Assembly (NCBI GenBank): GCA_963717295.1 | Contig: OY970330.1 | Coordinates: forward strand, 7,932,822 to 7,996,821 | DNA length: 64,000 nucleotides | Source: Thermoanaerobaculaceae bacterium | GTDB lineage: Bacteria > Acidobacteriota > Thermoanaerobaculia > Multivoradales > UBA5704 | Reading direction: 5' to 3' | In this document: positions 4,572-62,768 of the stretch, one piece after another | How the letters are laid out: each line of letters starts with the position of its first letter | Position numbering within the stretch: position 1 is the stretch's first letter | Made by a program: the position numbers and the translations under genes | The notes under the pieces: generated by a model | What the model saw: only the letters and a program-made list of their open reading frames with translations | Databases searched by the model: none | What the model was told of the DNA's origin: nothing

Positions 4572-6174
4572 TTGGCAACGGTCCGCCGGCAAGAGATTTT
4601 TCCGCGCCGCGGTCGTTTTCTTGAGCCTCGGCGCGTCCGGGGCGATGTTTTCCGCGTCTCTCGCGGCGCCGCAGCCCGCCAGCAACCCGCCGGCTTCGGC
4701 GGAGGAGAGGACGAATCTGCGTCAGACCCTCGAGAGCCGGTACGAGGTGCTGCCGGTGCAGGGCGGCATCGCGCTCAAGCCCCGCCAGCCCAAGGCGGGA
4801 ATCCGTACCATCGAGGTGACCTCCGACGGCGTGGCGGTCAACGGTGAGCGGGTGACCGCCCGCACGCTGCACGACTGGCTTGGCACCGACGCCGACCTGG
4901 TGCTGCGCCTGCAGAGCTTGAGCGCGGCCGAGCAGCGGCAGACCTTCGGCCTCGAAGGCGGCGCCCCCGCGCCGGCTGCCCCCGCGGCCCCTCCGGCCCC
5001 CGCGGCCTCTCCCGCGGCGGAACCGGGCGAATCGGCCGGCAAGGACGGCGAGGCCGAGGTGAGCGACGAGCCCGCGGCCGAGGAGACTCCGGAGGCCTCC
5101 GCCCCCTCCGCGCGTCACGGCGACCGCCATACCTCCGGCAGCCGCGTCAACGTCGGCGGCAGCGTGACCGTCAGCAAGGACGAGGTGGCGGAAGAGGTGG
5201 TGGCCGTCGGCGGCTCGGCGACGGTCGAGGGCGAGGTGGAGAGGGACGTCACGGCCATCGGCGGCTCCGCCCGTATCAACGGCAAGGTGGGCGGCGAGGT
5301 GGTGGCGGTGGGCAGCGGCGTCTATCTCGGCCCCAACGCCGAGGTGGAGGGGGACGTGACGAGCGTCGGCGGTACGGTCCACCGGGAGCCGGGAGCGAGA
5401 GTGCAGGGCAGGACCAACGAGGTGGGCATGGGTATCCTGCCGTTCGGCCGCCACGTGCACTTCGGCCGCTACGGCCACGATTGGGAGCCCTGGGGCGGCG
5501 TCTCCCGGGTGATGAGCAGCACCCTGTTCACGGTGCTCATGGGGCTGCTCGTCTGCCTGGTGCTGCTCATCGCCCGCGCGCCGTTGGAGCGGGTGGACCG
5601 CCAGCTCGTGGCCCGGCCCTGGCCGTCGGCGGCTACGGGGCTCGCCGGGTTCGTCTTCTTCTGGCCGCTGGTGGCGGCGATGACCATCCTGCTGGCCATC
5701 ACCATCATCGGCTGCGCGCTGTTCCTGCTCTACCCGTTCCTGTTCCTGTTCGTCGGGCTGCTTCTCCTCCTGGGCTACTCGGCGTCGGCCTACCGTCTCG
5801 GCCGTCTGGTGGAGGGCCGCTTCGGCCGCAACTTCGGGAGCCAGTACGTGGCGGCGCTGGTGGGCGTGCTGCTGATCCAGGTGTGGTCCATCCTCGGCCA
5901 CATGCTGGACCTGCTGCCCGGCCCTCTCGGCTTTTTCGCCGCGATGGTGGGGCTGTTCGGATTCCTGGTGCAGGCCGTGGCCTGGATCGTGGGTTTCGGC
6001 GCCGTCATCCTCGCCCGCTTCGGCCTCGAGCCGGGCTACTGGCAGGGGCAGGGGCCGCCAATGGCGCCGATGACACCCGCTCCCGTGCCTCCAGATTCCT
6101 ATCAGGAGCCCGGCGAGCCGCTGCCGCTCTCCGACTCGGAGCCGCCGGCCGAGTGGCAGGAGCCGCCGCTGTAG
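4555..6174 (+). CDS. membrane protein with DUF4097/bactofilin-like beta-helical repeats (LiaG/YvlB-like)
   Basis: Signal/TM segment, Ala/Pro-rich linker, tandem repeats VGGSVTVSKDEV..VAVGGSATVEGEVERDVTAIGGSARINGKVGGEVVAVG, then 4-5 C-terminal TM helices. Third gene of the ECF operon. Confidence 0.5.
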   Translation: MSTPSDWQRSAGKRFFRAAVVFLSLGASGAMFSASLAAPQPASNPPASAEERTNLRQTLESRYEVLPVQGGIALKPRQPKAGIRTIEVTSDGVAVNGERVTARTLHDWLGTDADLVLRLQSLSAAEQRQTFGLEGGAPAPAAPAAPPAPAASPAAEPGESAGKDGEAEVSDEPAAEETPEASAPSARHGDRHTSGSRVNVGGSVTVSKDEVAEEVVAVGGSATVEGEVERDVTAIGGSARINGKVGGEVVAVGSGVYLGPNAEVEGDVTSVGGTVHREPGARVQGRTNEVGMGILPFGRHVHFGRYGHDWEPWGGVSRVMSSTLFTVLMGLLVCLVLLIARAPLERVDRQLVARPWPSAATGLAGFVFFWPLVAAMTILLAITIIGCALFLLYPFLFLFVGLLLLLGYSASAYRLGRLVEGRFGRNFGSQYVAALVGVLLIQVWSILGHMLDLLPGPLGFFAAMVGLFGFLVQAVAWIVGFGAVILARFGLEPGYWQGQGPPMAPMTPAPVPPDSYQEPGEPLPLSDSEPPAEWQEPPL

Positions 6175-6192
6175 GGCAGGATCTCGGTCAGG

Positions 6193-6225
6193 ACGGCTCG
6201 CCGGAAGGTCCGGCGAGCCGTTCCG
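6193..6225. repeat. 33-bp hairpin direct repeat, copy A (identical to recD2 3' end copy B at 8022-8054)
   Basis: ACGGCTCGCCGGAAGGTCCGGCGAGCCGTTCCG vs ACGGCTCGCCGGCAGGTCCGGCGAGCCGTTCCG, 32/33 identical. Confidence 0.75.
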
Positions 6226-6667
6226 AATCACGGCCCCTTGGACCGGCGTAGCACCAACGCCGGCGATACTTGGTCCCGCTCCACCGGACCCTTGCCTCAT
6301 CGCAGGTTACTGCTCGGCGTAGCAGGTGAATCGGGGCTGTTTAGCCGAATGCTGCAGCGCGATCCGCCCGCGCCAATTCTCACAGAGAGTTTAGTTAGGT
6401 CCGGAATCCGAGCTTCCAAAGACTTCGGGTAGGGTAACCGCGAAAAGCGCCCCCCACGGCACGCTTAACACATGCCGGCCTTGGTATTGACGCGGTTTAG
6501 AAACCGGGGTACAGTTCTAACCACCCGAAGAATGAAGCAGATAACCAAGCCTGAGGGATTCTGGATTTGAGCTGGGCTGAGTCCTAAGGACTTGGCGGAG
6601 AAGTTCAGAGTAAAGTTCGGCGCCGATACGTGGAATTCGAGTCTAGCTAAGCTAAAGGGAGGTAGAA

Positions 6668-7270
6668 ATGACATCCAATACGGCATCGCCAATTTTCAAT
6701 GTTTTCGGACTCCGGCCGGCCCTCAGAGGAAAAGTGAGCTTAATCGTGATCACCCTAGTCGGGGTACTCGTAACCCCATCAGTTCTATATTCGGCAGAGC
6801 AAAGCTCCTCACCTGCAGTCGAACTGGGTAATAGCGGGAAGAACGCTCCGTCGACATCAAAATATCAAAGTGCGGCAGGGAGGTATCTTGAGCCTGGAGA
6901 AGTTACCGACCTAGCTGAGGAGCGGAGCACTGCAACACCGTCACTTTTGGTTGGGAACGCGGCCGCCGGCCCGTTTCTCGTCTCCGCCGCACAATACGGC
7001 ATTGTCAGTCTTAGTCAAACTACAGGCGCGATCAATTTCTGTGCAGGTTATACCTACCTGAATTCAGGTATGCCATTTGGAAAGTGCAAAAAGATCGGAA
7101 CTATTTCGCCAACAGGACTCTTGGGTAACGCTAGAATAGATGCGACATCGAATACCCATGCCTTCGTCACAAATACTGCCACTGGGCTGGTTGTTGAATG
7201 CTATCTCGGTTTCAACTCTGGTAGTGGCGAGCCTGTCGGGAGTTGCATTTCGCAGCAGCTACAACCATAA
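6668..7270 (+). CDS. hypothetical secreted protein (low-GC islet)
   Basis: Strong RBS AAGGGAGGT 6 nt upstream of ATG. Signal/TM LIVITLVGVLVTPSVLYSA. About 48% GC against ~68% background. No recognisable domain. Confidence 0.55.
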   Translation: MTSNTASPIFNVFGLRPALRGKVSLIVITLVGVLVTPSVLYSAEQSSSPAVELGNSGKNAPSTSKYQSAAGRYLEPGEVTDLAEERSTATPSLLVGNAAAGPFLVSAAQYGIVSLSQTTGAINFCAGYTYLNSGMPFGKCKKIGTISPTGLLGNARIDATSNTHAFVTNTATGLVVECYLGFNSGSGEPVGSCISQQLQP

Positions 7271-7419
7271 AGATAAAAAGCGGCCGCCGAACAGCTCCCC
7301 TTGGCTGGCGTGATGAGGTTGATAAGGAAAGAGAAGATCTACATCTCGCCGGAGCAACAGGATCGTATCGCGTCGATTCTCGCTCGCCTTGGCGATTTAG
7401 GGAGCCGGACGGTCCGCCG

Positions 7420-8005
7420 TAGGCATACGGTGGTGGAATGTACGGATACGGCGGCTCGTCGTCAGCATCGGCGGCCCGATGTACGGATACGGCGCCACGT
7501 CGTAAGCATCGGGTGGAGCGTCGTATCGATACGGCGGCCCACCGTATCGATACGGCATGACGCCGTCAGCATCGGCGGCCCGATGTATGGATACGGCGCC
7601 ACGTCGTATCCATCCGGCGTCTCGTCGTCACCATCGGCGGAGCGTCGTATCGATACGACGGCTCACCGTATCGATACGGCGTGACGCCGTAAGCATCGGC
7701 GGCTCGATGTATGGATACGGCGCCACGTCGTATCCATCCGGCGGCTCGTCGTCCCCATCGGCGGAGCGTCGTATCGATACGACGGCTCACTGTATCGATC
7801 CGGCGTCATGCCATAAGCATCAGGCGGCCCGATGTATGGATACGGCGCCACGTCGTATCCATCCGGCGTCTCGTCGTCCCCATCGGCGGAACGTCGTATC
7901 GATACGACGGCTCACCGTATCGATCCGGCGTGACACCGTAAGCATCGGCGGCCCGATGGATGGATACGGCGTTACGTTGTATCGGTACGACGTCGGTGAT
8001 CTCCA
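7420..8005. repeat. tandem array of ~124-bp palindrome-rich repeat (about 4.5 copies)
   Basis: GCATCGGCGGCCCGATGTATGGATACGG recurs at ~7466, 7569, 7693, 7817, 7942. Each unit carries perfect palindromes CGTCGTATCGATACGACG and CCGTATCGATACGG. Period is not a multiple of 3 and ORFs are open on both strands. Confidence 0.85.
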
Positions 8006-8020
8006 CGGTTGTGCTGCCAT

Positions 8021-10225
8021 TCACGGCTCGCCGGCAGGTCCGGCGAGCCGTTCCGCCAGCCGCGTAAAGCGCGCCCGCACCCGCCGGTTTCCCACCGCGA
8101 TCCTCAGCGCCTTCTCCTCTCCCACCAGCACGGCCAGCCGCTTCGCCCGGGTCAGGGCGGTGTAGAGCAGGTTGCGCTGCAGCATCACGTAGTGCGTCGA
8201 GTGCAGGGGGATCACGACGCAGGGGTACTCGCTGCCCTGCGACTTGTGGATCGAGCAGGCGTAGGCGAGGACGAGCTCGTCGAGCGAGCCGTGATCGTAG
8301 ATCACCTCGCGGCCGTCGAGCGCCACGGTCACCAGCTGGTCGACCTCGTCGATGGCCACGATGCGCCCGATGTCGCCGTTGAAGACCTCCAGGTCGTAGT
8401 TGTTCCGCACTTGCATCACCTTGTCGCCCACCCGCAGCGTCTGGCCGCCGCGGGTGATCTCGACCCCCGAGGGATTTAGCAGGTCGCGCAGCACGGCGTT
8501 CAGGTTCTCGGTGCCCAGGGGGCCGCGGTTCATGGGAGTGAGCACCTGGATCTGTTCCACGGGATCGAGGCCGAACTTTGCGGGAATGCGGCGGGCGACG
8601 AGCTGGGCGAGCGTCTCCACCAGCTCCTCGGGCTGGGCGCGCTCGATGAAGAAGAAGTCGCCGTCGCTGTCCACCGACTCCAGGATGGGCATCAGCCCCT
8701 GGTTGACCCGGTGGGCGTTGACCACGATCAGGCTGCGCTCGGCCTGGCGGAAGATCTCGGTGAGGCGCACGACCTCGATCGAGTCCGAGCGGATGAGGTC
8801 GGCGAGCACCCGGCCCGGCCCCACCGAGGGGAGCTGGTCGACGTCGCCGACGAGGATCAGGCGGCCGTGGTCCGGCACCGCCCGCAGCACGTGGTTGGCG
8901 AGGACGGTGTCGAGCATCGAGGCCTCGTCCACGATCAGCAGGTCGCAGGAGAGCGGATGATCGCGGTTGCGCTGGAACTGGCGGGTCTTCGGGTCGATCT
9001 CCAGCAGGCGGTGGAGGGTCGTGGCCTCGGAGCCCGTGGCCTCGGCGAGGCGCTTGGCGGCGCGGCCGGTGGGAGCGGCGAGCAGCACCTTCTGGCGCTT
9101 CTTTTCGAGGATCTTCACCAGCCCACGCACCAGCGTGGTCTTGCCGGTGCCGGGGCCGCCGGTGATCACCAGAACCTTGCGGGTGAGGCCGGCGCGCACG
9201 GCCTGGCGCTGCTGGCGGGCGAGCTCGATCGTCTCGCTCTTCTCGAACCAGTCGAGGGCGCGGTCGACGTCGATCTCCAGCGGCAAAGGCGGCTGGATGA
9301 GCAGGGCCCGCAGCCGCGCCGCGACACCGGTCTCGGCGGTGTGGAGGGACCTGAGGAAGACCGCTTGATCCTCTGGCGCGTCCAACGGTTCCAGAACGAT
9401 CTGCTCGGTGTCCGCCAGCGCCGCGAGGGCTTGGTCCACCAGGGCGGCCGGGGCTTCCAGCAGCTTCTCGGCCTCCTCCAGCAGGGTCTTTCTCGGCAGG
9501 TAGACGTGTCCGCGGTCCCCGGCCTGGCCCAGCAGGTAGAGCGAGCCCGCCTCGATGCGCTGCGGCGCCGTGGGCGGAATGCCGAGGGCGGCGGCGATCT
9601 TGTCCGCCGACTTGAAGCCGATGCCGTGGATGTCCGTCGCCAGCCGGTAGGGGTTCTCCCGCACCAGCTCGGTGGCATGGGCGCCGTAGGCCTTGTAGAT
9701 CTTGATCGCGTAGTGGGTGGAGACGCCGTGCGACTGGAGGAAGATCATCACCTCCTTGATCTCCCGCTGCTCCTCCCAGGCGCGCAGGATGTCGCGGCTG
9801 CGCTTGGGGCCGATCCCCTCGACCTCGACCAGCCGCTCCGGCCGGTTCTCGATGACGTCGAGCGTCTCCAGGCCGAAGGTCGCCACCAGCCGCGAGGCCA
9901 TGACCTTGCCGATGCCGCGGATCAACCCGGACCCCAGGTACTTCTCGATCCCCCCCACCGTCGCCGGCGTCACCGTGGCGTAGGAGGCGACCTTGAACTG
10001 CTTGCCGTACTTCGGGTCCTGGATCCAGATGCCGGTGAGCCGCAGGTTCTCGCCGGGCTGCACTCCCAGGAGGTTGCCGACCGCCGTCACCAGGTCGCGC
10101 TGGCCGGGCACGGTGAGGCGCGCCACCGTCCAGGCGTTCTCCTCGTTGCTGAAGACGATCCGCTCCAGGACCCCTTCGACGGTGGTCTGGGAGCTGGGCG
10201 GCTTGGGATCGAAGGGAAGAGTCAT
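8021..10225 (-). CDS. recD2: ATP-dependent RecD-like DNA helicase RecD2
   Basis: 734 aa. N-terminal OB/HhH region, Walker A VITGGPGTGKTT, Walker B LLIVDEASM, C-terminal SH3-like region VGDKVMQVRNNYD..VFNGDIG and helicase motif VI. The 918-aa ORF 7806..10562 overlapping it is an artifact. Confidence 0.9.
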   Translation of the reverse strand: MTLPFDPKPPSSQTTVEGVLERIVFSNEENAWTVARLTVPGQRDLVTAVGNLLGVQPGENLRLTGIWIQDPKYGKQFKVASYATVTPATVGGIEKYLGSGLIRGIGKVMASRLVATFGLETLDVIENRPERLVEVEGIGPKRSRDILRAWEEQREIKEVMIFLQSHGVSTHYAIKIYKAYGAHATELVRENPYRLATDIHGIGFKSADKIAAALGIPPTAPQRIEAGSLYLLGQAGDRGHVYLPRKTLLEEAEKLLEAPAALVDQALAALADTEQIVLEPLDAPEDQAVFLRSLHTAETGVAARLRALLIQPPLPLEIDVDRALDWFEKSETIELARQQRQAVRAGLTRKVLVITGGPGTGKTTLVRGLVKILEKKRQKVLLAAPTGRAAKRLAEATGSEATTLHRLLEIDPKTRQFQRNRDHPLSCDLLIVDEASMLDTVLANHVLRAVPDHGRLILVGDVDQLPSVGPGRVLADLIRSDSIEVVRLTEIFRQAERSLIVVNAHRVNQGLMPILESVDSDGDFFFIERAQPEELVETLAQLVARRIPAKFGLDPVEQIQVLTPMNRGPLGTENLNAVLRDLLNPSGVEITRGGQTLRVGDKVMQVRNNYDLEVFNGDIGRIVAIDEVDQLVTVALDGREVIYDHGSLDELVLAYACSIHKSQGSEYPCVVIPLHSTHYVMLQRNLLYTALTRAKRLAVLVGEEKALRIAVGNRRVRARFTRLAERLAGPAGEP
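8022..8054. repeat. 33-bp hairpin direct repeat, copy B (encodes RecD2 C-terminus ...RLAGPAGEP and likely its terminator)
   Basis: Matches copy A at 6193-6225. Confidence 0.75.
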
Positions 10226-43919: not shown

Positions 43920-46913
43920 CTACGGCTTCTCCTTCTTCCCCATGCGCCTGAGACTCTTGCCGATAACATCTTTGAGCGCTTGGTAGCGGGCGGCCTCTTC
44001 TTCGGGATCGACCGGGGTGCGGCGGACCCTCACCTTGTATCCGCCGACGACCTTCTCCCTCGTTACGGGCCGCATGGAAAGCATCGTGAAGAGTTCCTCG
44101 GGCGAGAGGAAGTGCACCCGGGCGAGATCGGAGGGCGGGAGCTTGGCCTTCAAGGCGGCCTCGATCTTTTGAAGGCGCGGACGCTTCAAGGCCAGGATCG
44201 CGACCTCATGAAAGCCGGCCTCAAGGCACTTCAAGGCGTTTCCGACCTCTTGGGCCACGGTGGAGGTGACCGAGATCTCGCAGGCGAGCGAGAAGTCGTC
44301 GGTGCGAAGCGCCACATCGACCTTGCCTTTGCCCTCCGGGATCTCCTCCTCGACCACGGCGCGGTAGCCGTGGGACTCGCCCCAGCGCTTCACGAGTTCC
44401 TGGAGGTACTGGTGCTCGGGGCCGCCGCGCCCCAAGGGCGGGACGGGCTCCTCTTCACGCGTCGCTCTCTTCGGGGGCGGAGGCGGTTGCGGTGCAGCGG
44501 TCGGTATTGGCGCGGGAACTCGCGGCGCTTCCGGCTCTACCGCCGGAGGCGGAGCCTTGCGCGCCGGCTCCGCTCTCTGCTGTGTCTCCTCTCTCCTTAC
44601 GGCATACCGCTCCCGGGAGCGTGCGGCGACCCTCTCGCGCCGCTCTGTGGCGACCTCGGCCGGAACCGCCGGCAGGAGCCGGGTCGCGAGGTTGCAGTCG
44701 CCCTGGGAGTTGTCGATCCGCGCGATGGCCTCTCCGACCCTGAGGCTCGTGAGGTCGGCCGGTCCGAAGAAGGACAGTCCCTCAGAGAGAGCCTTCGCAT
44801 CCCGGTCGCCCACCCGGAAGGCGATGCGCGTGCCGGCGTTCCCCAAGAGTGCGGAGGAGACCTCCGGGGCCTTCGCTTCAAGCTGCCGGAGATCCTGATG
44901 GGCGAGGGTGAGCCCCAAGCCGTACTTCCTGGCTCCCGCAAGGAGCTGCGCCATCGAAGCGGTCGCGACCTCCTGGCACTCGTCGGCGTAGAGGAAGAAA
45001 GGCCGGCGCTCTTCCCGCTTCACCTCCTGCCGGCTCATGGTGATCTGGTGGAACTTGGAGACGAGGAGGCTCCCTAGGAGTGCGGCGTTCTCTTCGCCGA
45101 TCGCACCTTGAGAGAGTCTTGCGAGGAAGATCTGCCCCCGGTCTACGACGGAGCGCAGGTCGAGGCGGCTTTCCCTAGCCCCTACGATCTGGCGCACGGT
45201 TTTCGAGCGCAGGAAGCCATCGAGACGAGTGAGGATCGCGCCCACGCTTTTGCCGGCCGCAAGCTGGAACTCGTGCCGGAAGTATGAGGAGAGGTACGGA
45301 TCGTCCACTGCGGCGAGGAGCCGCTCTCGGGTCGGACGGTCCACCAGGAACTCCCTGAGATCAAGGAGGGTCGCGCCCGGCGTTTCGAGGAGCACCAGGA
45401 CCGCGTTCCCCAAGACCGAGGTCATCTGGTCGCCCCAGGAGGTCGAGAAGCGGCGGAAGATGCCTACGAGGTCCGAGGCGAGGAGCGTGCGCTCAAGCTC
45501 GGAGTGGGCTTCGAGGATGTTCCAGGCGAGAGGGTGTTCGGCATCGGCCGGGTCGAAGAGGATCGCGTCGCCCTGTCTCTCCTCGGGGATGCGTCCCAGG
45601 ATCTCGTCTACGAGATCGCCGTGGGGATCGAGGAGGGCGACTCCCCGGCCCGCCTCTATGTCCTGCGAAATGAGGTCGAGGAGGAGGGTTGACTTGCCGC
45701 TTCCCGAGGCGCCGATCACGTGCAGGTGCCGGAGGCGCAGATCATTCGGGAGCCTGACCGCCAGGGCTCGGCCGTGATGCAGGTTCTCGCCAAGGAGAAT
45801 CCCCGGGCCTTGAGACAGTGCGGGCGCCGCTTTCGAGCGCCGTATTTCCCTCTGGAGCTTCGGGACCCGGACCGAGGCGCTCGGCAGGTGGGCGAAGGCG
45901 GCAAGTTCGTCGCTTCCGAGGATCATTCCCGGCCGGCGCGAGGTGCGCGAGCAAATCTCCGCCATAGCCTCTCCGCCCTCAAGGGTGGCGAGAGGCAGAA
46001 GCTCGTTCCCGGCGGGAGTGCCGAAATGAGTCAGGGCGCCCGCGAGATCGCGGACGATGCGCCAGGCACCGGTCGTGTCCGTGCTCTTCGCGGCCACCCG
46101 GAGACAGGCGGCAAAGAGCGGGCGGGAGACCTTCTCCCGCGCCTGCTTCGTGAGTTCGGGGTAGTCCACAAAGATGGGCTCGCCGCCAGGAGCCACGACC
46201 GACCGCATGACGCTCTCGGTCCAGGGCTCCCTTACCCGCTCAAAGAGGACTTGCACGAGCCCCGCCTCCCCGGGCTCAAGCTCGGCCATCGCTCCAAAGA
46301 GCGGTAGCAAGGGGTCAGGATCGAGGGAGCGGAAGGAGGCCAGGGGCAGCATGAACTCGCGCGCCAGGCCGAAGTGGAGGAGGACGGTTTCGCCTTGCTC
46401 CCTCGTCCATGCCTCACGCAGTCCCTCCGGCTCCGCTTGGACCCCGACTTCGGGGAAGAACGCGCGGAGCTGGTTTCCAAGAAGCGCGGCATCCGGCACG
46501 CGGGAGATCACTTGTACCTTGAGGCTCTCGGGGAGCCCTACGATCTCGAAGGCGAGCGGCAGCTCCGCGGCGGAGAGGGCGAGGAGGAAGCGCTCGGCGC
46601 TTTCCGCTTTGACCGCCGCTTCAGAGGGCAGTGAGACCGCACACTCGACGAGCGCTTCGTCGCTCTCGAAGGTCTCCGGTTCCGGCTCCTCGGTCTCCGG
46701 TATCGCGGGCTCCGGCCGGCGCGGCGCGAAGAGGCGCCCCAAGAGTCCCGGCCGGTGGCCGTCGTCCTGGGCTCGGGGAAGAAAGTATCCGGGAAAGGGA
46801 CGGAAGGGCGGCTCAAGAGCGACCGGCCAGGGAAACTCCTGCCAGCCGCGCCCCCTCAGTTCCCAGGCATAGAACTGCTCGGTCAGGCGATCGGGCAGGG
46901 ACGGTTCAGGCAT
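43920..46913 (-). CDS. TraD/TrwB/HerA-like conjugative P-loop ATPase with a C-terminal nuclease-like domain (997 aa)
   Basis: Walker A HVIGASGSGKST and Walker B FLYADECQE; LLDPHGDL motif shared with T4SS coupling proteins. Pro-rich linker, then a C-terminal ~150 aa segment (KGKVDVAL...ACEIS) that resembles a PD-(D/E)xK core. Confidence 0.55.
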   Translation of the reverse strand: MPEPSLPDRLTEQFYAWELRGRGWQEFPWPVALEPPFRPFPGYFLPRAQDDGHRPGLLGRLFAPRRPEPAIPETEEPEPETFESDEALVECAVSLPSEAAVKAESAERFLLALSAAELPLAFEIVGLPESLKVQVISRVPDAALLGNQLRAFFPEVGVQAEPEGLREAWTREQGETVLLHFGLAREFMLPLASFRSLDPDPLLPLFGAMAELEPGEAGLVQVLFERVREPWTESVMRSVVAPGGEPIFVDYPELTKQAREKVSRPLFAACLRVAAKSTDTTGAWRIVRDLAGALTHFGTPAGNELLPLATLEGGEAMAEICSRTSRRPGMILGSDELAAFAHLPSASVRVPKLQREIRRSKAAPALSQGPGILLGENLHHGRALAVRLPNDLRLRHLHVIGASGSGKSTLLLDLISQDIEAGRGVALLDPHGDLVDEILGRIPEERQGDAILFDPADAEHPLAWNILEAHSELERTLLASDLVGIFRRFSTSWGDQMTSVLGNAVLVLLETPGATLLDLREFLVDRPTRERLLAAVDDPYLSSYFRHEFQLAAGKSVGAILTRLDGFLRSKTVRQIVGARESRLDLRSVVDRGQIFLARLSQGAIGEENAALLGSLLVSKFHQITMSRQEVKREERRPFFLYADECQEVATASMAQLLAGARKYGLGLTLAHQDLRQLEAKAPEVSSALLGNAGTRIAFRVGDRDAKALSEGLSFFGPADLTSLRVGEAIARIDNSQGDCNLATRLLPAVPAEVATERRERVAARSRERYAVRREETQQRAEPARKAPPPAVEPEAPRVPAPIPTAAPQPPPPPKRATREEEPVPPLGRGGPEHQYLQELVKRWGESHGYRAVVEEEIPEGKGKVDVALRTDDFSLACEISVTSTVAQEVGNALKCLEAGFHEVAILALKRPRLQKIEAALKAKLPPSDLARVHFLSPEELFTMLSMRPVTREKVVGGYKVRVRRTPVDPEEEAARYQALKDVIGKSLRRMGKKEKP

Positions 46914-50026: not shown

Positions 50027-50173
50027 TCCCCACCGCTGTCGGGCTGCGCCCGACTGGCGTGGTTTCCTGACGGCTATCGGGTCTCGATCTTTCCCTATCG
50101 GTCGGCCCTTTGACCAAACCCCGCCAGTCGGGCGCACCGGCCTCGATACTCGGCCTTCCCGACAGCGGTGGGG
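50027..50173. other. nested imperfect inverted repeat; candidate oriT (or attachment site) upstream of the coupling-ATPase gene
   Basis: CCCCACCGCTGTCGGG / CCCGACAGCGGTGGGG outer arms (16 bp) and GCGCCCGACTGGCG / CGCCAGTCGGGCGC inner arms (14 bp), about 60 nt apart. Small hairpins TACATAC-AAG-GTATGTA and CCCC-ATAC-GGGG lie just upstream (49940-50016). Confidence 0.45.
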
Positions 50174-50428
50174 CACTGGCTTACGAAGGGCCGACGCTTC
50201 GCGTCACTACTGGCGAAGGCGTCGAAGCTCTCCGCCTTGGCAGGAAGGAAACCACGCGCGAGACTTACGCTCGCGCCTACCTCTCTTGCCGCGCCCGCTC
50301 GGTCACCACACGCCGTATTGCGGGCGTCACCGTGGAGCTTCCAGGCACGGGTTCTGCGGTCCTCCCTAGCGGGGAGGACACTGGCTCCCCATGGGGAGGG
50401 GAAGAGAGGTCGGGCGCCTTCCTATCCC

Positions 50429-51709
50429 ATGGACCACACCCCTATCGCAATCGGCACCCGCACGTATTGGGTTTCGGATGACCCGAAGCTTGTTTTGCTG
50501 CATCCCGAGGACCGGGCACAGCACCTCTATGTCGTCGGAAAGACGGGGCTCGGCAAGAGCACCTTGCTTCGGAACCTCATCCTCCAGGACCTCTATGCCG
50601 GGCGAGGTGTGGGTCTCCTTGATCCTCATGGAGACCTCGCGCGCGATGTATTGGACGCGATCCCGCGCGGACGCACGAACGACGTGCTCTATTTCAACCC
50701 CGGCGACCTCGCGCGTCCCGTGGGCCTGAATCTCCTGCCCAGGGTTCCGCGCGACGAGGAACATCTTGTCGTGGCCGGAGTCCTCTCCGCCTTCCGGGGG
50801 ATCTGGGGCTCGAGCTGGGGACCGCGCCTCGAATACATCCTGGGACATGCCCTGGCGGCGCTCCTTGACCACGGCCAGCTCACGATCCTCGCCCTACCTC
50901 GTCTCCTATCGGACGACGCCTTCCGGGAGCGCCTCACGGCGCGTGTTCGAGATCCGATTGTCCGTGCCTTCTGGCGCGACGAGTACGCCCGCTACGAGAA
51001 GCGCTTTCGGCTTGAAGCCATCGCCCCGATCCAAAACAAGATCGGGCGCCTCCTCTCGAACGCTCCGATGCGGAACATCATGGGCCAGGTGAAAAGCCGC
51101 TTCGACGCGGGATTCCTCATGGACCGGAGCCGGATCATGATCGCCAATCTCTCGAAAGGCGTGATCGGCGACGACCATGCCCGTCTCCTTGGGGCGCTTC
51201 TCCTCTCGCAGTTCCAATGGGCGGCGATGCGGAGGGCGGCGTTGCCGTATGCTGCCCGCACCCCCTTCCACCTCTACATCGACGAGTTCCAGAGCTTCGC
51301 GACCGATGCCCTCACCTCCATCCTCGCGGAGGCCAGGAAATACGGGCTCGCCCTCGTTCTCGCCCACCAGTACCTCGATCAGCTCACCGACGAGATCCGG
51401 CAAAGCGTATTCGGCAATGCCGGCAACCTCATTGCCTTCCGGGTGGGCCAAGCCGATGCCCGTATCCTTGAGGACGAGCTCGGCGGCGACGTGAAGATGG
51501 GGAACCTCGTTTCCTTGGGGAAGCACGAGATCTATGCCCGGCTCCTGGACGAGGGCCGGATGCGGGAGCCCTTCCGGGGCAAGACCCTGGCGCCCGTCCG
51601 GGGCACCGCGACCGGCCGGCGGGAGGCGGTGATCCGGCAATCGCGGGAGCGGTATGGTAGGCCGCGGGCGGAGGTGGAGGGGAAGATCGAACGGTGGCTT
51701 GGCGGCTGA
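50429..51709 (+). CDS. TraD/TrwB-like conjugative coupling P-loop ATPase (paralog of the 997-aa protein's core)
   Basis: Walker A YVVGKTGLGKST, LLDPHGDLARDVL, Walker B HLYIDEFQSF. Aligns with residues ~380-800 of the 43920..46913 product. Confidence 0.6.
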   Translation: MDHTPIAIGTRTYWVSDDPKLVLLHPEDRAQHLYVVGKTGLGKSTLLRNLILQDLYAGRGVGLLDPHGDLARDVLDAIPRGRTNDVLYFNPGDLARPVGLNLLPRVPRDEEHLVVAGVLSAFRGIWGSSWGPRLEYILGHALAALLDHGQLTILALPRLLSDDAFRERLTARVRDPIVRAFWRDEYARYEKRFRLEAIAPIQNKIGRLLSNAPMRNIMGQVKSRFDAGFLMDRSRIMIANLSKGVIGDDHARLLGALLLSQFQWAAMRRAALPYAARTPFHLYIDEFQSFATDALTSILAEARKYGLALVLAHQYLDQLTDEIRQSVFGNAGNLIAFRVGQADARILEDELGGDVKMGNLVSLGKHEIYARLLDEGRMREPFRGKTLAPVRGTATGRREAVIRQSRERYGRPRAEVEGKIERWLGG

Positions 51710-51756: not shown

Positions 51757-52764
51757 ATGTCCCATCTCCAGACCCGCAGACCCCGCTTCGATCGTGCACC
51801 GGTGCGCGGCATCATTCTTACGCCCCGCGACCTCGAGATTCTCCGCGCCGTCTGTCGCCACCGGCTCCTTCGCTCTACTCATCTCGTAGCTCTCTCCGGA
51901 GGAAGCCCCCAGGCGACGCTTCGCCGCTTACAGCTCCTTTTCCACCATGGCTACCTCGATCGGCCGCCCATGCAACTCGACTGGTACGCGCGAGGATCGG
52001 AGCCCATGGTCTATGCCCTCGGGACTCGGGGTGCGGAGGTTCTCGATACCGAGGGTGAACTGAGGCGGGGCGGTGTGCGTTGGGACACGAAAAACCGCAA
52101 CCTCTCCCGCGTCTTCCTTCATCACACGCTCGCGGTCGCCCAGGTCATGGTGGCCTTCGAGGTCGCTTGCCGGAGGCGCGAGGGGGTGCAGTTCATCTCG
52201 CCGGAAGACGTGCTTGCCGGAGCGCCACCTGAGACTCGGCGTCTGCGCCTTCCCTTCCGCTGGCAGGTCGAGGTCCGCCAAGGCGGCAAGCTCTACCATC
52301 TGGGCGTCGAGCCGGATCGGGTCTTCGGCCTGCACTTCGAGGGTGTGCCGGAGAACCGGAGTCGAGCGTTCTTCTTCCTCGAAGCGGACCGGGGCACTAT
52401 GCCAGTTGAGAGGAAGGGCCTCGTGCAGACAAGCTTTCTCCGCAAGATCTTCGCGTACCGAGAGACCTGGCGGCAGGGACTCCACAAGGAGCACCTCGGC
52501 ATCCCGAACTTCCGAGTCCTCACTGTAACGACGAGCGAGGAGCGGGTGGGGCACTTGGTTGGGGCGTGTCGGTCGTTATCCGGAGGCGGCTCGCGCCTTT
52601 TTCTCTTCACGACCGGGGAACTAGATCGCGAAGACATTCTCGCCCAATGGTGGGAGAGTGGGAGGGGCGAACTCGTGAGACTCTTCGGGGCCACCCGAAC
52701 CTCCCCGCCGGAAGTGAAGGATACACATCTCTTGGAGGGGCCGATGACCTCCTCCGAGACTTAG
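51757..52764 (+). CDS. replication-relaxation family protein (Replic_Relax, putative relaxase-like)
   Basis: N-terminal wHTH ILTPRDLEILRAVCRHRLLRSTHLVAL and overall Replic_Relax layout. Adjacent to the coupling ATPase. Confidence 0.6.
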   Translation: MSHLQTRRPRFDRAPVRGIILTPRDLEILRAVCRHRLLRSTHLVALSGGSPQATLRRLQLLFHHGYLDRPPMQLDWYARGSEPMVYALGTRGAEVLDTEGELRRGGVRWDTKNRNLSRVFLHHTLAVAQVMVAFEVACRRREGVQFISPEDVLAGAPPETRRLRLPFRWQVEVRQGGKLYHLGVEPDRVFGLHFEGVPENRSRAFFFLEADRGTMPVERKGLVQTSFLRKIFAYRETWRQGLHKEHLGIPNFRVLTVTTSEERVGHLVGACRSLSGGGSRLFLFTTGELDREDILAQWWESGRGELVRLFGATRTSPPEVKDTHLLEGPMTSSET

Positions 52765-52966: not shown

Positions 52967-54970
52967 ATGCAAGACGGTTCGAGTGGCAGAAAAAGATCTT
53001 CCAATTTTCAGATAGCTCGCCTCACAGATCCTGAAGCAGTGAATGTCCGCCAATATGGAGGAAAGATTTCGAACCTTGCCCGTCTAACTACGATAGGTAG
53101 TCGTGTCCCTTCAGGCTTGGCACTCGGCAAACAAGTGCTCGCCTATTTTCTTAGTGAAAACGAGATTGACCTCGCGGCTCTCGACCAAATTCATAGCCGC
53201 GGCATGATTTTCCTTGAATCAGCTCTAAGCGAAGCACAAACGTGGCAAGAAAGGATCGTCTCAACTATCCGGGATGGAAGATTCCCTCCGGATATACAGG
53301 CGACGCTCCTTGATGAGTTATTCGACGGTCGTCGATATGCGGTTCGTTCCTCGTGTGTAGTAGAGGATTCCTCCTCTACCTCGTTCGCAGGACAGTACAT
53401 GACGGTTCTCGGTGTTTCGGGTCACAGCGCACTTCTAGACGCAATTCGTTCATGCTGGTCATCTCAATATGACGGTCGGGTTCTCACTTATGCTCTCTCT
53501 CGCCGTGGAATGCCTGTTCTCATTCCATCCATGGCGATTCTGATCCAGGAAATGCTGGAGCCGGAGTTTGCTGGCGTTTGCTTTTCTGAGGGTCCGACTC
53601 CACGAACTAGAGACTTCACAATTGTCGAGAGTGTTGATGGTATTGGAGAAGCGCTAGTTAGCGGTGAAAAGACACCAGCACACTTCGAGGTTGCGAAGGA
53701 TGGCTCCATTCATCGCGCATTGGTTAATCCCGCGACTGGAAAAGTCCCGACCGAGAACCAAATTGTAGCTGTTGCCGACGAGGCAAAACGAATTTCTACA
53801 GCCTTCGGTTCTCCCCAGGATATTGAATGGGCAATTGCCAATGACCAACTTTTCCTTCTTCAAGCACGACCAATAACAGTTCTCGGAGGCCAAAGAACGG
53901 CATCCATTCCTACATTCGGTGGAGACCAGACTAAGAGACCTTCTCTTGGCGGTGAACAGGTTGTCGCGACTTCCGAGATCCTTCGCGACGATCTTCATGA
54001 GTGGCTGATCGCGCGGATCGATCCACTCGTCTATCGGGGAGCGGCCTACCTGCTTTCGAAACAGCATGAGGATGGGTCTTGGAAGGTTGAGGGTCATCCA
54101 GAGTGGGATTGTGTTGCCACGGCTCTGACGGTAAGACTATTGCTAGACGGTGGTGTTCCGAGCATGTTGACGTGGTCACTACCAGGGCGGGCGAATGACG
54201 CACCTGCTCTCGGAGTTCAGGCTGCAATAGGCTGGTTAGTAAGAAATATAAAAGAGGATGGCAGTTGGGGAACTGATCTCTGGGATACCTGCCAAGTAAT
54301 CAGAGCTCTCCTACGCTCGGGATTCACCCTTGATGAGCCTATTCTAGCCTCAGCGTTTACTCAAGTGACATCGCAATTGGCCAGGGGGATGACCAGTGTC
54401 GCAGAGCAAGAATGGGCCGGTGCCGGCTTTCTCGCTGTTGTTCTGCAACTCCTACATGACGCTCGAAAGCAGCCAATGCTCGATGATTTCATGTCCCTTC
54501 TCCTGGAAGCGCAAACAGCAGAAGGCGATTTTCCTGCGTTCTACCGCGGCAGTCGCGACCCAGTTCCATCGGAATGGCACACGGCCCAAGCGATCACTGC
54601 TCTTAGTCACTGTTGCGCTGGAAAAGGCGATGTAATGACTGCCGTGCAAAGAGCACAGGATTGGCTTGTTTCACGCCAGCATGGCAACGGTTCATGGGGA
54701 GTTAGCGCTGGGTCCTATTCCCATTTCAATACGTTCTTCACATCCTATGCCATCGTCTCTTTCTCAAACGAAGACCTCCCTCGAAGCGATACCGTGACGA
54801 AGGCCCTAAGGTGGTTACGCGGAAAACAACTGGCATCCGGCGCATTTGGCGACATTGCATCATCGTTGATGGCATTGAGCGCCTTCCAACATGTCCGAGG
54901 GCGAATATTTTCCCTTGATATGCCAATCCCTCTTTTTCTGAGAATCCAAAGTTGTCTTAGTAAGGCATGA
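52967..54970 (+). CDS. fusion protein: PEP-utilizing-enzyme ATP-binding (PPDK_N / ATP-grasp-like) domain + alpha/alpha-toroid domain with QW motifs (terpene cyclase / prenyltransferase-like)
   Basis: N-terminus VRQYGGKISNLARLTTIGSRVPSGLAL resembles GGKGANL..LG.PVP of PEP synthase/PPDK/rifampin phosphotransferase. C-terminus has QW-like repeats KQHEDGSWKV, NIKEDGSWGTDLWDT, SRQHGNGSWGVS, GKQLASGAFGD. About 50% GC. Confidence 0.6.
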   Translation: MQDGSSGRKRSSNFQIARLTDPEAVNVRQYGGKISNLARLTTIGSRVPSGLALGKQVLAYFLSENEIDLAALDQIHSRGMIFLESALSEAQTWQERIVSTIRDGRFPPDIQATLLDELFDGRRYAVRSSCVVEDSSSTSFAGQYMTVLGVSGHSALLDAIRSCWSSQYDGRVLTYALSRRGMPVLIPSMAILIQEMLEPEFAGVCFSEGPTPRTRDFTIVESVDGIGEALVSGEKTPAHFEVAKDGSIHRALVNPATGKVPTENQIVAVADEAKRISTAFGSPQDIEWAIANDQLFLLQARPITVLGGQRTASIPTFGGDQTKRPSLGGEQVVATSEILRDDLHEWLIARIDPLVYRGAAYLLSKQHEDGSWKVEGHPEWDCVATALTVRLLLDGGVPSMLTWSLPGRANDAPALGVQAAIGWLVRNIKEDGSWGTDLWDTCQVIRALLRSGFTLDEPILASAFTQVTSQLARGMTSVAEQEWAGAGFLAVVLQLLHDARKQPMLDDFMSLLLEAQTAEGDFPAFYRGSRDPVPSEWHTAQAITALSHCCAGKGDVMTAVQRAQDWLVSRQHGNGSWGVSAGSYSHFNTFFTSYAIVSFSNEDLPRSDTVTKALRWLRGKQLASGAFGDIASSLMALSAFQHVRGRIFSLDMPIPLFLRIQSCLSKA

Positions 54971-57493: not shown

Positions 57494-60073
57494 ATGCCGA
57501 CTTCCCCAGACGTTTCGACTGAAATTCTCCAATGGTCGCAGGATCGCCCCGGTTGGCAACGGGACGCACTTCGGCGGCTTCTCTCGACAGGAGAGATTTC
57601 AACCACCGAGATCGATCAGCTCCTTCTCCTGTGCAAGGCGGCCAGGGGACTTGCGCAGCCCACCTCTCCCAATGTCCTCACCCGGAGCCATCTTCCTACC
57701 AAGAGCACCGGCGGGGACTCGACCTCGTTGGTTACTCTGACCCACCATTGCGGCGCGAACGCCTTGGCGTCCGAACAAACCATCGCATTCGGCCCACGCC
57801 TCACGATCGTCTATGGCCAGAATGCCGCGGGCAAGTCAGGCTACACAAGAATTCTCAAACAGGCATGCCGGTCGCGGGCCACTGAAAAGATTCTGGGCGA
57901 TCTTCTCAGCGGTGCATCGCCGGTGAAACTACAGGCCACAATCTCGTTCCGGCACGGCGCCGAGGAAACTCCAACGCTGTGGGCAATGGGCGATCCGCCT
58001 TCGGATGCTCTTGCGGCGGTTAGTGTATTCGACTCGGGCTGTGCGCCGGTTTATCTCCGGGATAAAACCGATGTCGCCTTCCGTCCCTTCGGCCTTGATA
58101 TATTCGACCGGCTGGCTTCCCTTTGTAGCGAACTGCGCAATCGACTCGAAAGCGAGAAGGTAAAGCTGAACATGCTCGCCTCGCCACTTCCGACATTTGC
58201 TGAGGCAACGAAGGTCAGATTCTTTATTGATCATCTGTCTTCCCTCACGAAACCGGAAGACCTTAGAAGCTTGGCCATCCTCTCGTCCACTGAGAGAGCA
58301 CGCCTTGAAGCGCTGCGAGGACACCAGCGTGATCTTCTCTCCGCCGATCCTAAGGCCCGGGCCAGGGAGCTAACCTCAAGAGCCGACCGTGTTGACTTAC
58401 TCAAGCGGCATATAGCGGATCTATTTGCGGTTCTACGGGGAAGCGCGCTATCAGATCTTCAAAAGTCGGCTGAGGCACTTCGGGCGGCGCAAGCATCACT
58501 CGCTCTCTTGAGGACTACAGCATTAACCCCCGACTTGCTTCCTGGCACAGGAGAGGAGAACTGGCGGAAGATGTGGGAAGCAGCCGAGGGATTCTCAGGA
58601 ATAGCTTATCCCGACTCCCCCTTTCCCGCTCTGACAGATGATGCGCGATGCCCTCTCTGTCAGCAGGAGATAGGCGTGGAGGCTGAAGCACGACTTCGGC
58701 ATTTTGCCGAATATGTCGCATCAACGGCTCAAACGCGAGTACGCGAGGCGGAGAGAGCATATGGAGCGTCTCTTTCCCTGTTAAACCAAGCGGTGATTGT
58801 CCGGCCCGATATTGAGTTGGCGATTAGCGAGCTCCGCCTAGAGAATGAGCAACTTGCCCAGAGCGTCCAAGGCTTCTTGCAAAACGCTGGACAAACTCGA
58901 AAAGGGATCAATGAAGCTCTAGCACAAGGCGTGGGATTCTTGGCAAGCGTGGTCCAGAGTCCCGAAGCGGAATTGCAGGCAGCTGCCTTGAGCCTTCGCG
59001 AACGAGCCAAACAACTATTGGCCGAGCAGCCAACGATGAATCCCGAAGCTATAAGCGAGCTGAAGGAGCTAGAGGCCCGTTTGACCCTTGGCGAGCATAT
59101 GGACGCTGTCCTTGAGGCGATTGAACGCAAAAAGCAATTGGCGGCCTACGAGCTGTGCCTATCCGACACGACAACCCAAGCAATAACTCGGAAGAGTACG
59201 GAGTTGACAACCCAATTGGTGACAGATCAGCTCAAGGCTGGATTCCAGGAGGAGTTGAAGGCTCTAGAGTTTAATCATCTCGCTGTTGCGGTCCAGCCAG
59301 CGGGAGGCGCCAGAGGAACGCTGTTTCACCGGCTTATCTTCACCAACGCACCAGGAGTCACTATCACCAATGTACTTAGCGAGGGAGAGTCGAGGACTCT
59401 TTCGCTCGCTTCTTTCCTCACAGAGCTAAAGACCGCCGAGAGTCGCTCCGCAATCATCTTTGACGACCCCGTTTCTTCGCTGGATCATATGTGGCGGGAG
59501 AGAATAGCTCGAAGACTTGTCGCAGAAGCTGCGACGCGTCAGGTCATCGTGTTTACTCATGACATTCTCTTTCTAAGATTCCTCGCAGACGAAGCGACAA
59601 GGTTTGGCGTAGACTGCAAGCATCAATATATCCAGCGTGACACTCAGGTCGGTATATGCACGGAAGACCTCCCGTGGATTGCCATGAATACCTCTGCCCG
59701 TATCAGAAGAATGCGGGAGCGCTATCAGGAAGCCGAGAAGCTCTTCCGCACCTTCCCCGAGAAATACGAGGACGCGGCTCGCGGTATTTATCGCCTCCTT
59801 CGAGAGGCATGGGAGCAAGCAACCACAGAAGTTCTCCTCAACGATGTTGTTCAGCGATATCGTCCGAGCATCGAGACCAATAAAGTAAGGCTTCTACATG
59901 ATATTACTCCTGATGACTGCAAGGCGATCGAAGCAGGAATGACAGAGTGCTCACGTTGGCTCCACGATCAGCCTGCCGCCGACGGCACCCCTTTTCCAAG
60001 GCCAGATGCCCTCAAAAGCCGGATTGATGACCTTGACGGATTAGTGAAAGCCATTAAAAAGCGACGCCCTTAA
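57494..60073 (+). CDS. large ABC/Rad50-like ATPase with a coiled-coil CxxC zinc hook; RloC/PrrC-like candidate anticodon nuclease (859 aa)
   Basis: Walker A GQNAAGKSGYT, long coiled coil containing DARCPLCQQEI (zinc-hook-like), ABC signature LSEGESRTLSLA, Walker B AIIFDDP, H-loop VFTHD, then a ~170-aa C-terminal domain containing R..E...H spacing. Confidence 0.45.
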   Translation: MPTSPDVSTEILQWSQDRPGWQRDALRRLLSTGEISTTEIDQLLLLCKAARGLAQPTSPNVLTRSHLPTKSTGGDSTSLVTLTHHCGANALASEQTIAFGPRLTIVYGQNAAGKSGYTRILKQACRSRATEKILGDLLSGASPVKLQATISFRHGAEETPTLWAMGDPPSDALAAVSVFDSGCAPVYLRDKTDVAFRPFGLDIFDRLASLCSELRNRLESEKVKLNMLASPLPTFAEATKVRFFIDHLSSLTKPEDLRSLAILSSTERARLEALRGHQRDLLSADPKARARELTSRADRVDLLKRHIADLFAVLRGSALSDLQKSAEALRAAQASLALLRTTALTPDLLPGTGEENWRKMWEAAEGFSGIAYPDSPFPALTDDARCPLCQQEIGVEAEARLRHFAEYVASTAQTRVREAERAYGASLSLLNQAVIVRPDIELAISELRLENEQLAQSVQGFLQNAGQTRKGINEALAQGVGFLASVVQSPEAELQAAALSLRERAKQLLAEQPTMNPEAISELKELEARLTLGEHMDAVLEAIERKKQLAAYELCLSDTTTQAITRKSTELTTQLVTDQLKAGFQEELKALEFNHLAVAVQPAGGARGTLFHRLIFTNAPGVTITNVLSEGESRTLSLASFLTELKTAESRSAIIFDDPVSSLDHMWRERIARRLVAEAATRQVIVFTHDILFLRFLADEATRFGVDCKHQYIQRDTQVGICTEDLPWIAMNTSARIRRMRERYQEAEKLFRTFPEKYEDAARGIYRLLREAWEQATTEVLLNDVVQRYRPSIETNKVRLLHDITPDDCKAIEAGMTECSRWLHDQPAADGTPFPRPDALKSRIDDLDGLVKAIKKRRP

Positions 60074-62649: not shown

Positions 62650-62768
62650 CAGTCACACCGCAAAGGTACGAGTCACGCAAGACGGCTCCGGGAGCCGTCT
62701 TTTGCGTTTTGATTCCGGCCTCTACTCTGACCGCAGAACCTCACAATCTGAGAAGAAAGGAGGATGCG

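Follow-up and report, generated by a model that had tools for sequence, protein, structure and literature searches.

A 1.8-kb insert of lower-GC DNA flanked by a duplicated 33-bp palindromic segment at the 3' end of recD2 in an uncultured acidobacterium

We analyzed a stretch of 64,000 nucleotides (hereafter the window) from a Thermoanaerobaculaceae bacterium of the phylum Acidobacteriota (assembly GCA_963717295.1, contig OY970330.1, positions 7,932,822 to 7,996,821 of the forward strand), in which the gene of a RecD2/YrrC-type helicase and a convergent membrane-protein gene are separated by a small islet lying between two copies of a 33-bp repeat (table 1). Our comparisons showed that 1,797 bp of foreign DNA with a lower guanine-cytosine (GC) content were inserted inside the last codons of recD2 and that a 33-bp segment was duplicated. 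The helicase possesses the full set of Pfam domains (OB_YrrC, HHH_RecD2, AAA_30, SH3_13, and UvrD_C_2). The membrane-protein gene shares an operon with an ECF (extracytoplasmic function) sigma factor and an anti-sigma factor; the label "LiaG-like," which an original prediction made from the bare sequence had given to this gene, was not supported by Pfam, where only a sub-threshold match to bactofilin was obtained (E = 0.0038).

The repeat reads ACGGCTCGCCGG(A/C)AGGTCCGGCGAGCCGTTCCG. The pattern ACGGCTCGCCGGMAGGTCCGGCGAGCCGTTCCG had exactly two matches in the window, while dinucleotide-preserving shuffles of the sequence led to an expectation of 0.00. A direct repeat of 33 bp bounding the islet had been predicted; its left copy was found where it had been placed (6193-6225), but the second copy occupies 8023-8055, so that the predicted position, 8022-8054, has to be moved up by 1 bp. 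In each copy, perfect inverted arms of 12 bp enclose a 5-nt loop, and the 33-bp segment is composed of the 29-bp perfect palindrome that ends recD2 and of 4 further bp on the recD2 side only. For the folded copies, energies of -25 to -33 kcal/mol were predicted (z-scores between -3.2 and -6.7). The copies differ at a single position, A versus C on the forward strand (window 6205 versus 8035), which lies in the hairpin loop, and it is because of this substitution that the left copy gains a 13th base pair and keeps a loop of only 3 nt. The left copy starts 18 bp past the stop of the membrane-protein gene. The right copy also includes the first base (T) of the recD2 stop codon, and its sequence is identical to that of the closest relative, L087. 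The hairpin had further been called the probable terminator of recD2. A stable hairpin does stand at the gene end, but neither copy was called in the terminator scan and no T-run follows on either strand; lacking a U-tract, the terminator is unproven. The hairpin copies could still conceivably take part in noncanonical termination or in the stabilization of mRNA.

Considering that an insertion should leave an uninterrupted counterpart in related genomes, the same locus was compared among relatives. By RecD2 homology, the window belongs to the Thermoanaerobaculia (Acidobacteriota). In seven close relatives (L001, L002, L003, L087, L088, L089, and L100/L101), whose RecD2 proteins are 90-97% identical to that of the window, recD2 and the convergent membrane-protein gene have stops only 24-44 bp apart and a single copy of the hairpin. 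Both flanks of the window align through one 33-bp stretch there; for instance, 8023-8150 and 6108-6225 both cover positions 7589-7621 of L001. In more distant relatives (L005-L010, L013, and L016), recD2 adjoins the membrane-protein gene as well. The empty site whose existence the original prediction had proposed to check, a membrane-protein gene abutting recD2, was thus found at the DNA level with one hairpin copy in all seven close relatives.

The two ends of the insert can be told apart by what follows the hairpin. In the orientation of recD2, the left copy is followed by TCC TGA CCG and the right copy by GA ATG GCA. In L001-L003, L087, and L089, the hairpin of the empty site likewise continues with TCCTGA(C/T)C; therefore, the left copy is the orphaned original end of recD2. 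The RecD2 protein of the window terminates in ...LAGPAGEP*, whereas the form in the clade is ...LAGPAGEPS*, and all of the clade RecD2 proteins (16/16) in a collection of 5.8 billion proteins end in ...LAGP(A/S)GEPS. The protein stops at GEP because the insert completes a TGA codon straight after the repeat. It was thus shown that recD2 lost only its terminal serine and that both convergent host genes kept a hairpin at their 3' ends.

Among clade members the loop of the hairpin reads ACCTG, ACCCG, or ACCCT (L089 being among the loci compared) and in the orphan copy ACCTT, while the stems are invariant. The loop base of the orphan copy would turn an alanine into a serine (...GPSGEPS), and this allele is natural in two relatives, P0085 and P0087, which are 89-90% identical. 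The invariance of the stem (0/24 variable positions, compared with 26/99 upstream) was not used as a sign of selection, because most of the compared sequences had been retrieved by an exact-stem pattern and the argument would be circular.

The composition of the insert is also different from that of its surroundings. The islet had been described as lower in GC, and this was correct, since the GC content is 0.565 between the repeat copies and about 0.70 in the flanks (0.69-0.71 in the flanking genes). Its parts are not uniform, with 0.563 in the leader, 0.509 in a gene for a 200-residue protein (ORF200, for open reading frame), and 0.628 in a tandem array. At third codon positions (GC3) the difference is larger, ORF200 having 0.478 and recD2 and the membrane-protein gene 0.946 and 0.903, respectively. 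Window positions 5668-7597 were also recovered, with 100% identity, in an independent assembly of short reads (L093), the contig of which stops inside the satellite; therefore, the left junction is not an artifact of one assembler. Based on parsimony, on the foreign composition, and on homologues located elsewhere, the insertion is the derived state in the lineage of the window. The single-copy empty sites, the ancestral TCCTGA beside the left copy, and the foreign GC3 together bear out the predicted insertion at the recD2 3' end with duplication of its target.

The opposite polarity, in which the insert was ancestral and was lost from the relatives, deserves consideration, because recombination between 33-bp direct repeats would yield exactly the single-copy site that the relatives have. 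Nevertheless, all close and intermediate relatives (64-97% RecD2 identity) have recD2 next to the membrane-protein gene, so that many independent and precise losses would be needed. The RecD2 identity of 97% to L087/L100 suggests that the genome of the window lies inside the empty-site clade, and neither the foreign GC3 (0.478 vs. 0.90-0.95) nor the presence of ORF200 homologues elsewhere in other genomes is what an ancestral insert would lead one to expect. We regard such a history as very improbable.

A hairpin at a gene end may also be a member of a dispersed repeat family, and in that case its two copies would say little about an insertion. Repetitive extragenic palindromic (REP) sequences and bacterial interspersed mosaic elements (BIME) resemble the recD2 hairpin in being GC-rich, stable hairpins at the ends of convergent genes; unlike them, the recD2 hairpin is nonrepetitive and lies inside coding sequence. 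No further copy was found elsewhere in the 64-kb window (of a genome of 8.8 Mb) at up to 3 mismatches, and a 12-mer half-site that recurs at 21332 forms no hairpin. Among the 86 loci fetched for comparison, the stem pattern occurred once each in L001-L003, at recD2. In 2.9 million viral contigs, neither the hairpin nor the array motif nor the left junction was present. The hairpin was found at 6 loci in 241 million metagenome records, and 3 of these were recD2 ends; the other 3 were unrelated, with different loops and flanks. A generic REP-like repeat, which had been named as the finding that would speak against an insertion boundary, was therefore looked for in the window, the relatives, the viral contigs, and the metagenome records. 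Within the window, the relatives, and the metagenome records we reject a dispersed palindrome of this kind, with two copies in 64 kb and one per relative, always at recD2.

Table 1. Features of the recD2 locus and of the far end of the 64-kb window (window coordinates)
Feature	Position	Strand	Description or basis
Membrane-protein gene, 545 aa	4537-6174	+	ORF list; left flank, convergent with recD2
Ancestral intergenic DNA and orphaned last codon and stop of the original recD2	6175-6192		TCAGGA (+) = TCC TGA (-)
Left repeat copy (attR-like)	6193-6225		Orphaned original recD2 3' end; 13-bp stem, 3-nt loop
Left inner end and noncoding leader	6226-6667	+	GC 0.563; 442 bp
ORF200, 200-aa secreted protein	6668-7270	+	Homologues, profile search, AlphaFold2 model
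Spacer	7271-7444		Terminator-like site (7295-7283, -); start of the dubious ORF
Dubious ORF	7301-7684		Begins MRLIRKEKIYISPEQQDRIASILARLG..., runs into the satellite
Self-complementary minisatellite	7445-7984		Tandem Repeats Finder
Right inner end	7985-8022		Last two bases (TC, +) complete the new recD2 TGA stop
recD2, 734-aa RecD2/YrrC-type helicase	8021-10225	-	Intact; Pfam domains
Right repeat copy (attL-like)	8023-8055		Last 10 recD2 codons; 12-bp stem, 5-nt loop
TrwB/TraG-type coupling-protein ORF	43920-46913	-	ICE/IME-like region
TrwB/TraG-type coupling-protein ORF	50168-51709	+	ICE/IME-like region
Replic_Relax protein	51757-52764		ICE/IME-like region
PPDK_N/squalene-cyclase-like fusion	52967-54970		ICE/IME-like region
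AAA_13/AbiEii-like ATPase	57494-60073		ICE/IME-like region
Large serine recombinase	60080-61615	-	ICE/IME-like region
CHC2 primase-like protein	62709-63719		ICE/IME-like region
Note.—aa, amino acids; ICE, integrative and conjugative element; IME, integrative and mobilizable element.

The boundaries of the insert read ...GCCGTTCCG|AATC... and ...CCATTC|ACGG..., and no terminal inverted repeats exist between the two inner ends, the best local alignment being a 15-bp chance match far from them. Neither the window nor the fetched loci contained a second copy of any part of the insert, and searches of phage and plasmid collections gave no DNA match. A transposon or a miniature inverted-repeat transposable element with target-site duplication was rejected for the lack of terminal inverted repeats and of other copies and for the length of the duplication (33 bp). 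Insertion sequences of the IS200/IS605 type are associated with palindromes, carry their own subterminal hairpins, make no duplication, and have an empty site without the hairpin. This type was rejected, because the empty sites in the relatives retain the hairpin within the coding sequence of recD2. An integron gene cassette, in which an attC site with R/L boxes follows an ORF that has no promoter, was rejected as well, since no GTTRRRY core is present at the boundaries and a 442-bp leader with a promoter-like site precedes the gene. Neither structured RNA genes (no Rfam family at threshold, only chance miRNA matches with E of 0.3-0.6) nor a tRNA or tmRNA was found in the insert.

A cut of a less usual kind was also considered, in which a transposase-like or Cas1-like enzyme makes staggered nicks 33 bp apart around the hairpin, in the manner of CRISPR repeat duplication or of casposons, and a nonautonomous derivative is inserted. 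It would account for a direct repeat that flanks the insert and for the one copy left in empty sites, and the duplicated unit is a palindromic repeat of the size of CRISPR repeats. The known duplications made by transposases and casposases, however, measure 2-15 bp; neither terminal inverted repeats nor a gene for a transposase or Cas1 is present in the insert, and no part of it has a second copy in the window. A staggered cut of this type therefore appears improbable to us.

The reading toward which we lean, though only slightly, is that the islet arose by conservative site-specific recombination and is now an integrase-less element of the CIME (cis-mobilizable element) type. A circular element carrying a copy of the 33-bp sequence (attP) would have recombined with the end of recD2 on the chromosome (attB). 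The recombinase being absent from the insert, the latter would be either the remnant of a larger integrative element after an internal deletion or a module moved in trans. If the insert were excised, its circular junction would read ...GCTGCCATTC, the 33-bp repeat, and AATCACGGCC....

Several properties of the locus argue for site-specific recombination. Inverted arms of 11-12 bp around a center of 5-7 bp correspond to the layout of the core sites of tyrosine recombinases, in which inverted binding arms of about 9-13 bp flank a central overlap of 6-8 bp; the repeat can be read as 12-5-12 or as 11-7-11 (ACGGCTCGCCG-GAAGGTC-CGGCGAGCCGT), a layout that any perfect hairpin would fit. The 4 bp beyond the palindrome, present on the recD2 side only, fit a block of identity between attP and attB better than a symmetric staggered cut. 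Both host genes are scarless, as is the case with islands at gene 3' ends. The repeat is too long for the known duplications by transposases, and terminal inverted repeats are missing. Finally, the copies differ only in the central region, and the orphan allele is the natural one of P0085 and P0087. Such an allele would be expected if the element had been resident in a different host before; a later mutation would be an equally good explanation.

Other observations weigh against this explanation. Neither the ORF list nor Pfam revealed a recombinase gene or a recognizable remnant of one in the insert, which agrees with the earlier statement that no integrase remains there. No integrase-bearing element and no other insertion at the end of recD2 were found in 82 recD2 loci and 120 RecD2 homologues; with no second occupied site, the case for site-specificity is built on one event. 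For tyrosine recombinases, mismatches in the central region are as a rule unfavorable. As for recombinases in the window, the only one seen is of the large serine type and is encoded some 52 kb from the islet; nothing links it to the hairpin, and repeats of 33 bp are not what enzymes of this type normally leave behind. No homology was found between the insert and phages, plasmids, or viral contigs, and its right junction is supported by the assembly of this window alone. Thus, from the proposal of a site-specific insertion leaving a decayed island or a nonautonomous element, the insertion, the duplication, and the missing integrase stood, whereas catalysis by a recombinase is only inferred and neither a second occupied site nor an integrase-bearing relative accompanies it.

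The same facts can be arranged around a single accident. A fragile palindrome may have been extruded as a hairpin or cruciform or have stalled replication, after which nicks made in the two strands at its opposite ends by structure-specific nucleases, fill-in of the long overhangs, and end-joining of a random foreign fragment would produce an insert between two copies of the segment. This scenario agrees with an insertion that is unique among the relatives sampled, with an insert that lacks mobility genes and terminal repeats and has no counterpart as a whole, with its mosaic GC content (0.56, 0.51, and 0.63 in the leader, ORF200, and array), and with a duplicated segment that almost coincides with a very stable perfect palindrome. 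Symmetric cleavage, however, does not predict a duplication that reaches 4 bp past the palindrome on one side and ends flush with it on the other. The junctions are clean, recD2 remaining in frame with an immediate stop and both genes keeping a hairpin, and captured fragments more often carry truncated genes at their ends, none of which was recognizable here. To our knowledge, no bacterial case of 33-bp duplications by break repair of this sort has been documented. We consider illegitimate insertion a possible but clearly secondary explanation and retain site-specific recombination as the preferred one.

The cargo of the insert consists of ORF200 and the array. The ORF200 protein begins with a signal or transmembrane segment, from which a disordered linker leads to a conserved C-terminal domain; this domain is all-beta, about 100 amino acids long, and has four cysteines. 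Seven homologues at 48-100% identity were aligned, and a profile search recovered 69 clusters (at 50% identity) from 1.84 billion proteins, while no Pfam or PHROG family was matched. In the AlphaFold2 model the C-terminal domain has a pLDDT of about 85 and 8 strands. Its matches to folds in the PDB were weak and propeller-blade-like (two blades), with E of at least 0.02, and deriving a function from the fold was rejected for this reason. The members of the family (proteins P0001-P0073) are mostly secreted proteins of 120-140 amino acids, some of them with weak, sub-threshold PEP-CTERM motifs. The homologues are found on contigs with a GC content of 0.56-0.60, where their neighbors are toxin-antitoxin genes, a KAP NTPase, or a DDE transposase but in no case recD2; their similarity at the DNA level ends at the borders of the gene. 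The homologue closest in DNA sequence (81% over positions 6615-6939 of the window) is P0007 (135 amino acids), a truncated and frameshifted copy in L094/L095. It lies about 1.8 kb from a DDE_Tnp_1 transposase gene (L094 2385-3734 and 5537-5944; L095), which is consistent with ORF200 traveling in mobile contexts.

In the leader, positions 6487-6515 match a sigma-70-like promoter, and ORF200 is preceded by a strong Shine-Dalgarno sequence (AAGGGAGG). The leader had no match in Rfam, and its homology among the fetched loci was limited to about 53 bp upstream of the start codon, in L094/L095. Judging from its sequence, ORF200 is a self-contained gene with its own promoter-like site and ribosome-binding site, and its product is predicted to be a secreted protein with a four-cysteine beta domain.

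The tandem array that had been noticed within the islet is real. It consists of about 23 units of about 20.7 bp around the palindrome CGTATCGATACG, arranged in four higher-order copies of 124 bp that are 91% alike. Its motif is confined to the array within the window, and its folding is predicted to be strong. A coding repeat was rejected, as none of the six frames is free of stops and the period of 124 bp is not divisible by 3; the tyrosine-rich "peptides" on both strands arise because of the palindrome CGTATCGATACG. Satellites of similar design and unrelated sequence, with a period of 20-21 bp and higher-order units of 84-104 bp, occur at L008 21673-22025, L011 1194-1649, and L081/L082 7576-7947. 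Considering that such satellites recur in relatives, the array need not belong to any mobility machinery. The array of L082 is in frame, forming a TPQDRM(A/V) heptad repeat in a called gene about 2 kb upstream of an ORF200 homologue. In the window, the 540-bp palindromic satellite is probably noncoding passenger DNA or, alternatively, could be a leftover array of protein-binding sites. The dubious ORF that runs into it is loosely similar to ribbon-helix-helix proteins over its first 40 residues or so, with sub-threshold Pfam matches to DUF3408 and DUF6078 (best E of 0.036 and 0.04, ranging to 0.09). As a ribbon-helix-helix protein binding the array it is only a weak lead, the matches being sub-threshold (E of 0.04-0.09). 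Its part at 7301-7440 may be the remnant of a small DNA-binding or antitoxin gene.

Over longer distances the surroundings of recD2 are less constant. At 72-78% RecD2 identity, the gap between recD2 and the membrane-protein gene is larger in L011 (12211-20257, 8 kb), L029 (6159-15691, 9.5 kb), and L014 (3018-5150, 2.1 kb). These gaps were examined as candidates for full-length elements or for an insertion hotspot and rejected, since they contain ordinary genes and no integrase. The genes are those of response regulators, an EAL-domain protein, a hybrid histidine kinase, and a polyprenyl synthetase-like ORF, and L014 has one large ORF without a Pfam scan. Over such distances the junction thus varies, and no genes pointing to mobile elements were seen in it.

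Two further observations concern the RecD2 proteins themselves. The clade homologue P0089 (738 amino acids, 90% identical), for which no contig is on record, ends early in ...ERLAGPAG, inside the second arm of the hairpin, and could mark another disruption at the same site. The exact 734-residue RecD2 of the window was absent from the protein and contig collections, probably owing to a different call of the start codon, though ORF200 of the same genome (P0001, on a contig of 8.78 Mb) was present.

At its far end (43920-64000) the window contains a region resembling an ICE or IME, with a GC content of 0.47-0.57 from about 52.5 kb onward, which probably runs off the window (table 1). With genes of conjugation and integration there, the genome therefore hosts integrative mobile elements.

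At the recD2 locus, an uncultured acidobacterium from soil has recently acquired DNA horizontally; the breakpoints are exact, empty sites provide many controls, and the locus shows that a conserved helicase gene and its convergent neighbor both survived the insertion intact. Its family of secreted proteins with a four-cysteine beta domain, for which no Pfam model exists, and the recurrent higher-order satellites with a 20-21-bp period are worth cataloging. No new mechanism is revealed; the value of the case lies in being a well-controlled example and a lead to a recombinase using the recD2 site, if one exists.

Among known systems, the modules of Acinetobacter plasmids known as pdif or dif modules are composed of genes bounded by Xer sites and have no recombinase of their own (PMC7399989, PMC6449649). 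The recD2 insert resembles them in its one-gene scale, in lacking a recombinase, and in its short sites with inverted arms and a short center, but its own sites are chromosomal, lie inside coding sequence in direct orientation, and form perfect palindromes rich in GC. Recombinases encoded by the host could in principle mobilize modules of this kind. Sites of the dif type have an imperfect 11-6-11 structure with one AT-rich arm and flank plasmid modules in alternating orientation; the dif of proteobacteria does not resemble the GC-rich perfect palindrome at the end of recD2. A chromosomal counterpart of this system can be imagined, in which the palindrome would be a dedicated docking site for modules without a recombinase, a host- or ICE-encoded recombinase would act in trans, and the array would supply arm-type accessory sites. 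We judge it improbable and continue to favor the integration of an element that now lacks its integrase.

Cassettes at conserved gene ends offer a second comparison. Pseudo-SCC (staphylococcal cassette chromosome) elements are devoid of ccr genes and occupy the 3' end of rlmH (orfX) in staphylococci. Like the recD2 insert, they are recombinase-less cassettes at the 3' end of a conserved gene, with direct repeats that include the gene end; unlike it, they have repeats of about 15-18 bp, made by large serine recombinases. Elements with tyrosine integrases also target gene 3' ends, as exemplified by ICESt3 at fda and SGI1 at trmE. With such islands the insert shares the position at the extreme 3' end of a gene that is reconstituted, repeats of tens of bp, and a GC content below that of the host; it differs from them in having no integrase, in its size of only 1.8 kb, and in that the role of an integrase is inferred.

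The closest likeness is to CIMEs, which are decayed integrative elements that keep attL and attR and have lost their integrase and transfer genes (PMC5704250, PMC6323972). The recD2 insert is likewise small, lies at the 3' end of a conserved housekeeping gene between direct repeats of which one rebuilds the gene end, and contains only cargo. It carries no integrase, excisionase, or transfer genes, ORF200 being the only convincing gene and the other ORFs having no domain matches. It departs from CIMEs in that no cognate ICE or IME of the same att specificity is known or was found among the 82 loci and 120 homologues, in that no remnant of ICE genes is present, and in that its repeat is a perfect palindrome. 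In structure, then, the insert agrees with this class, and descent from an ICE or IME found no support in the loci and homologues compared. Among the papers searched, none joins recD2, attB, and integrase. The 3' end of recD2 is a previously unreported insertion target, and both this target and a host from Thermoanaerobaculia are new for CIMEs.

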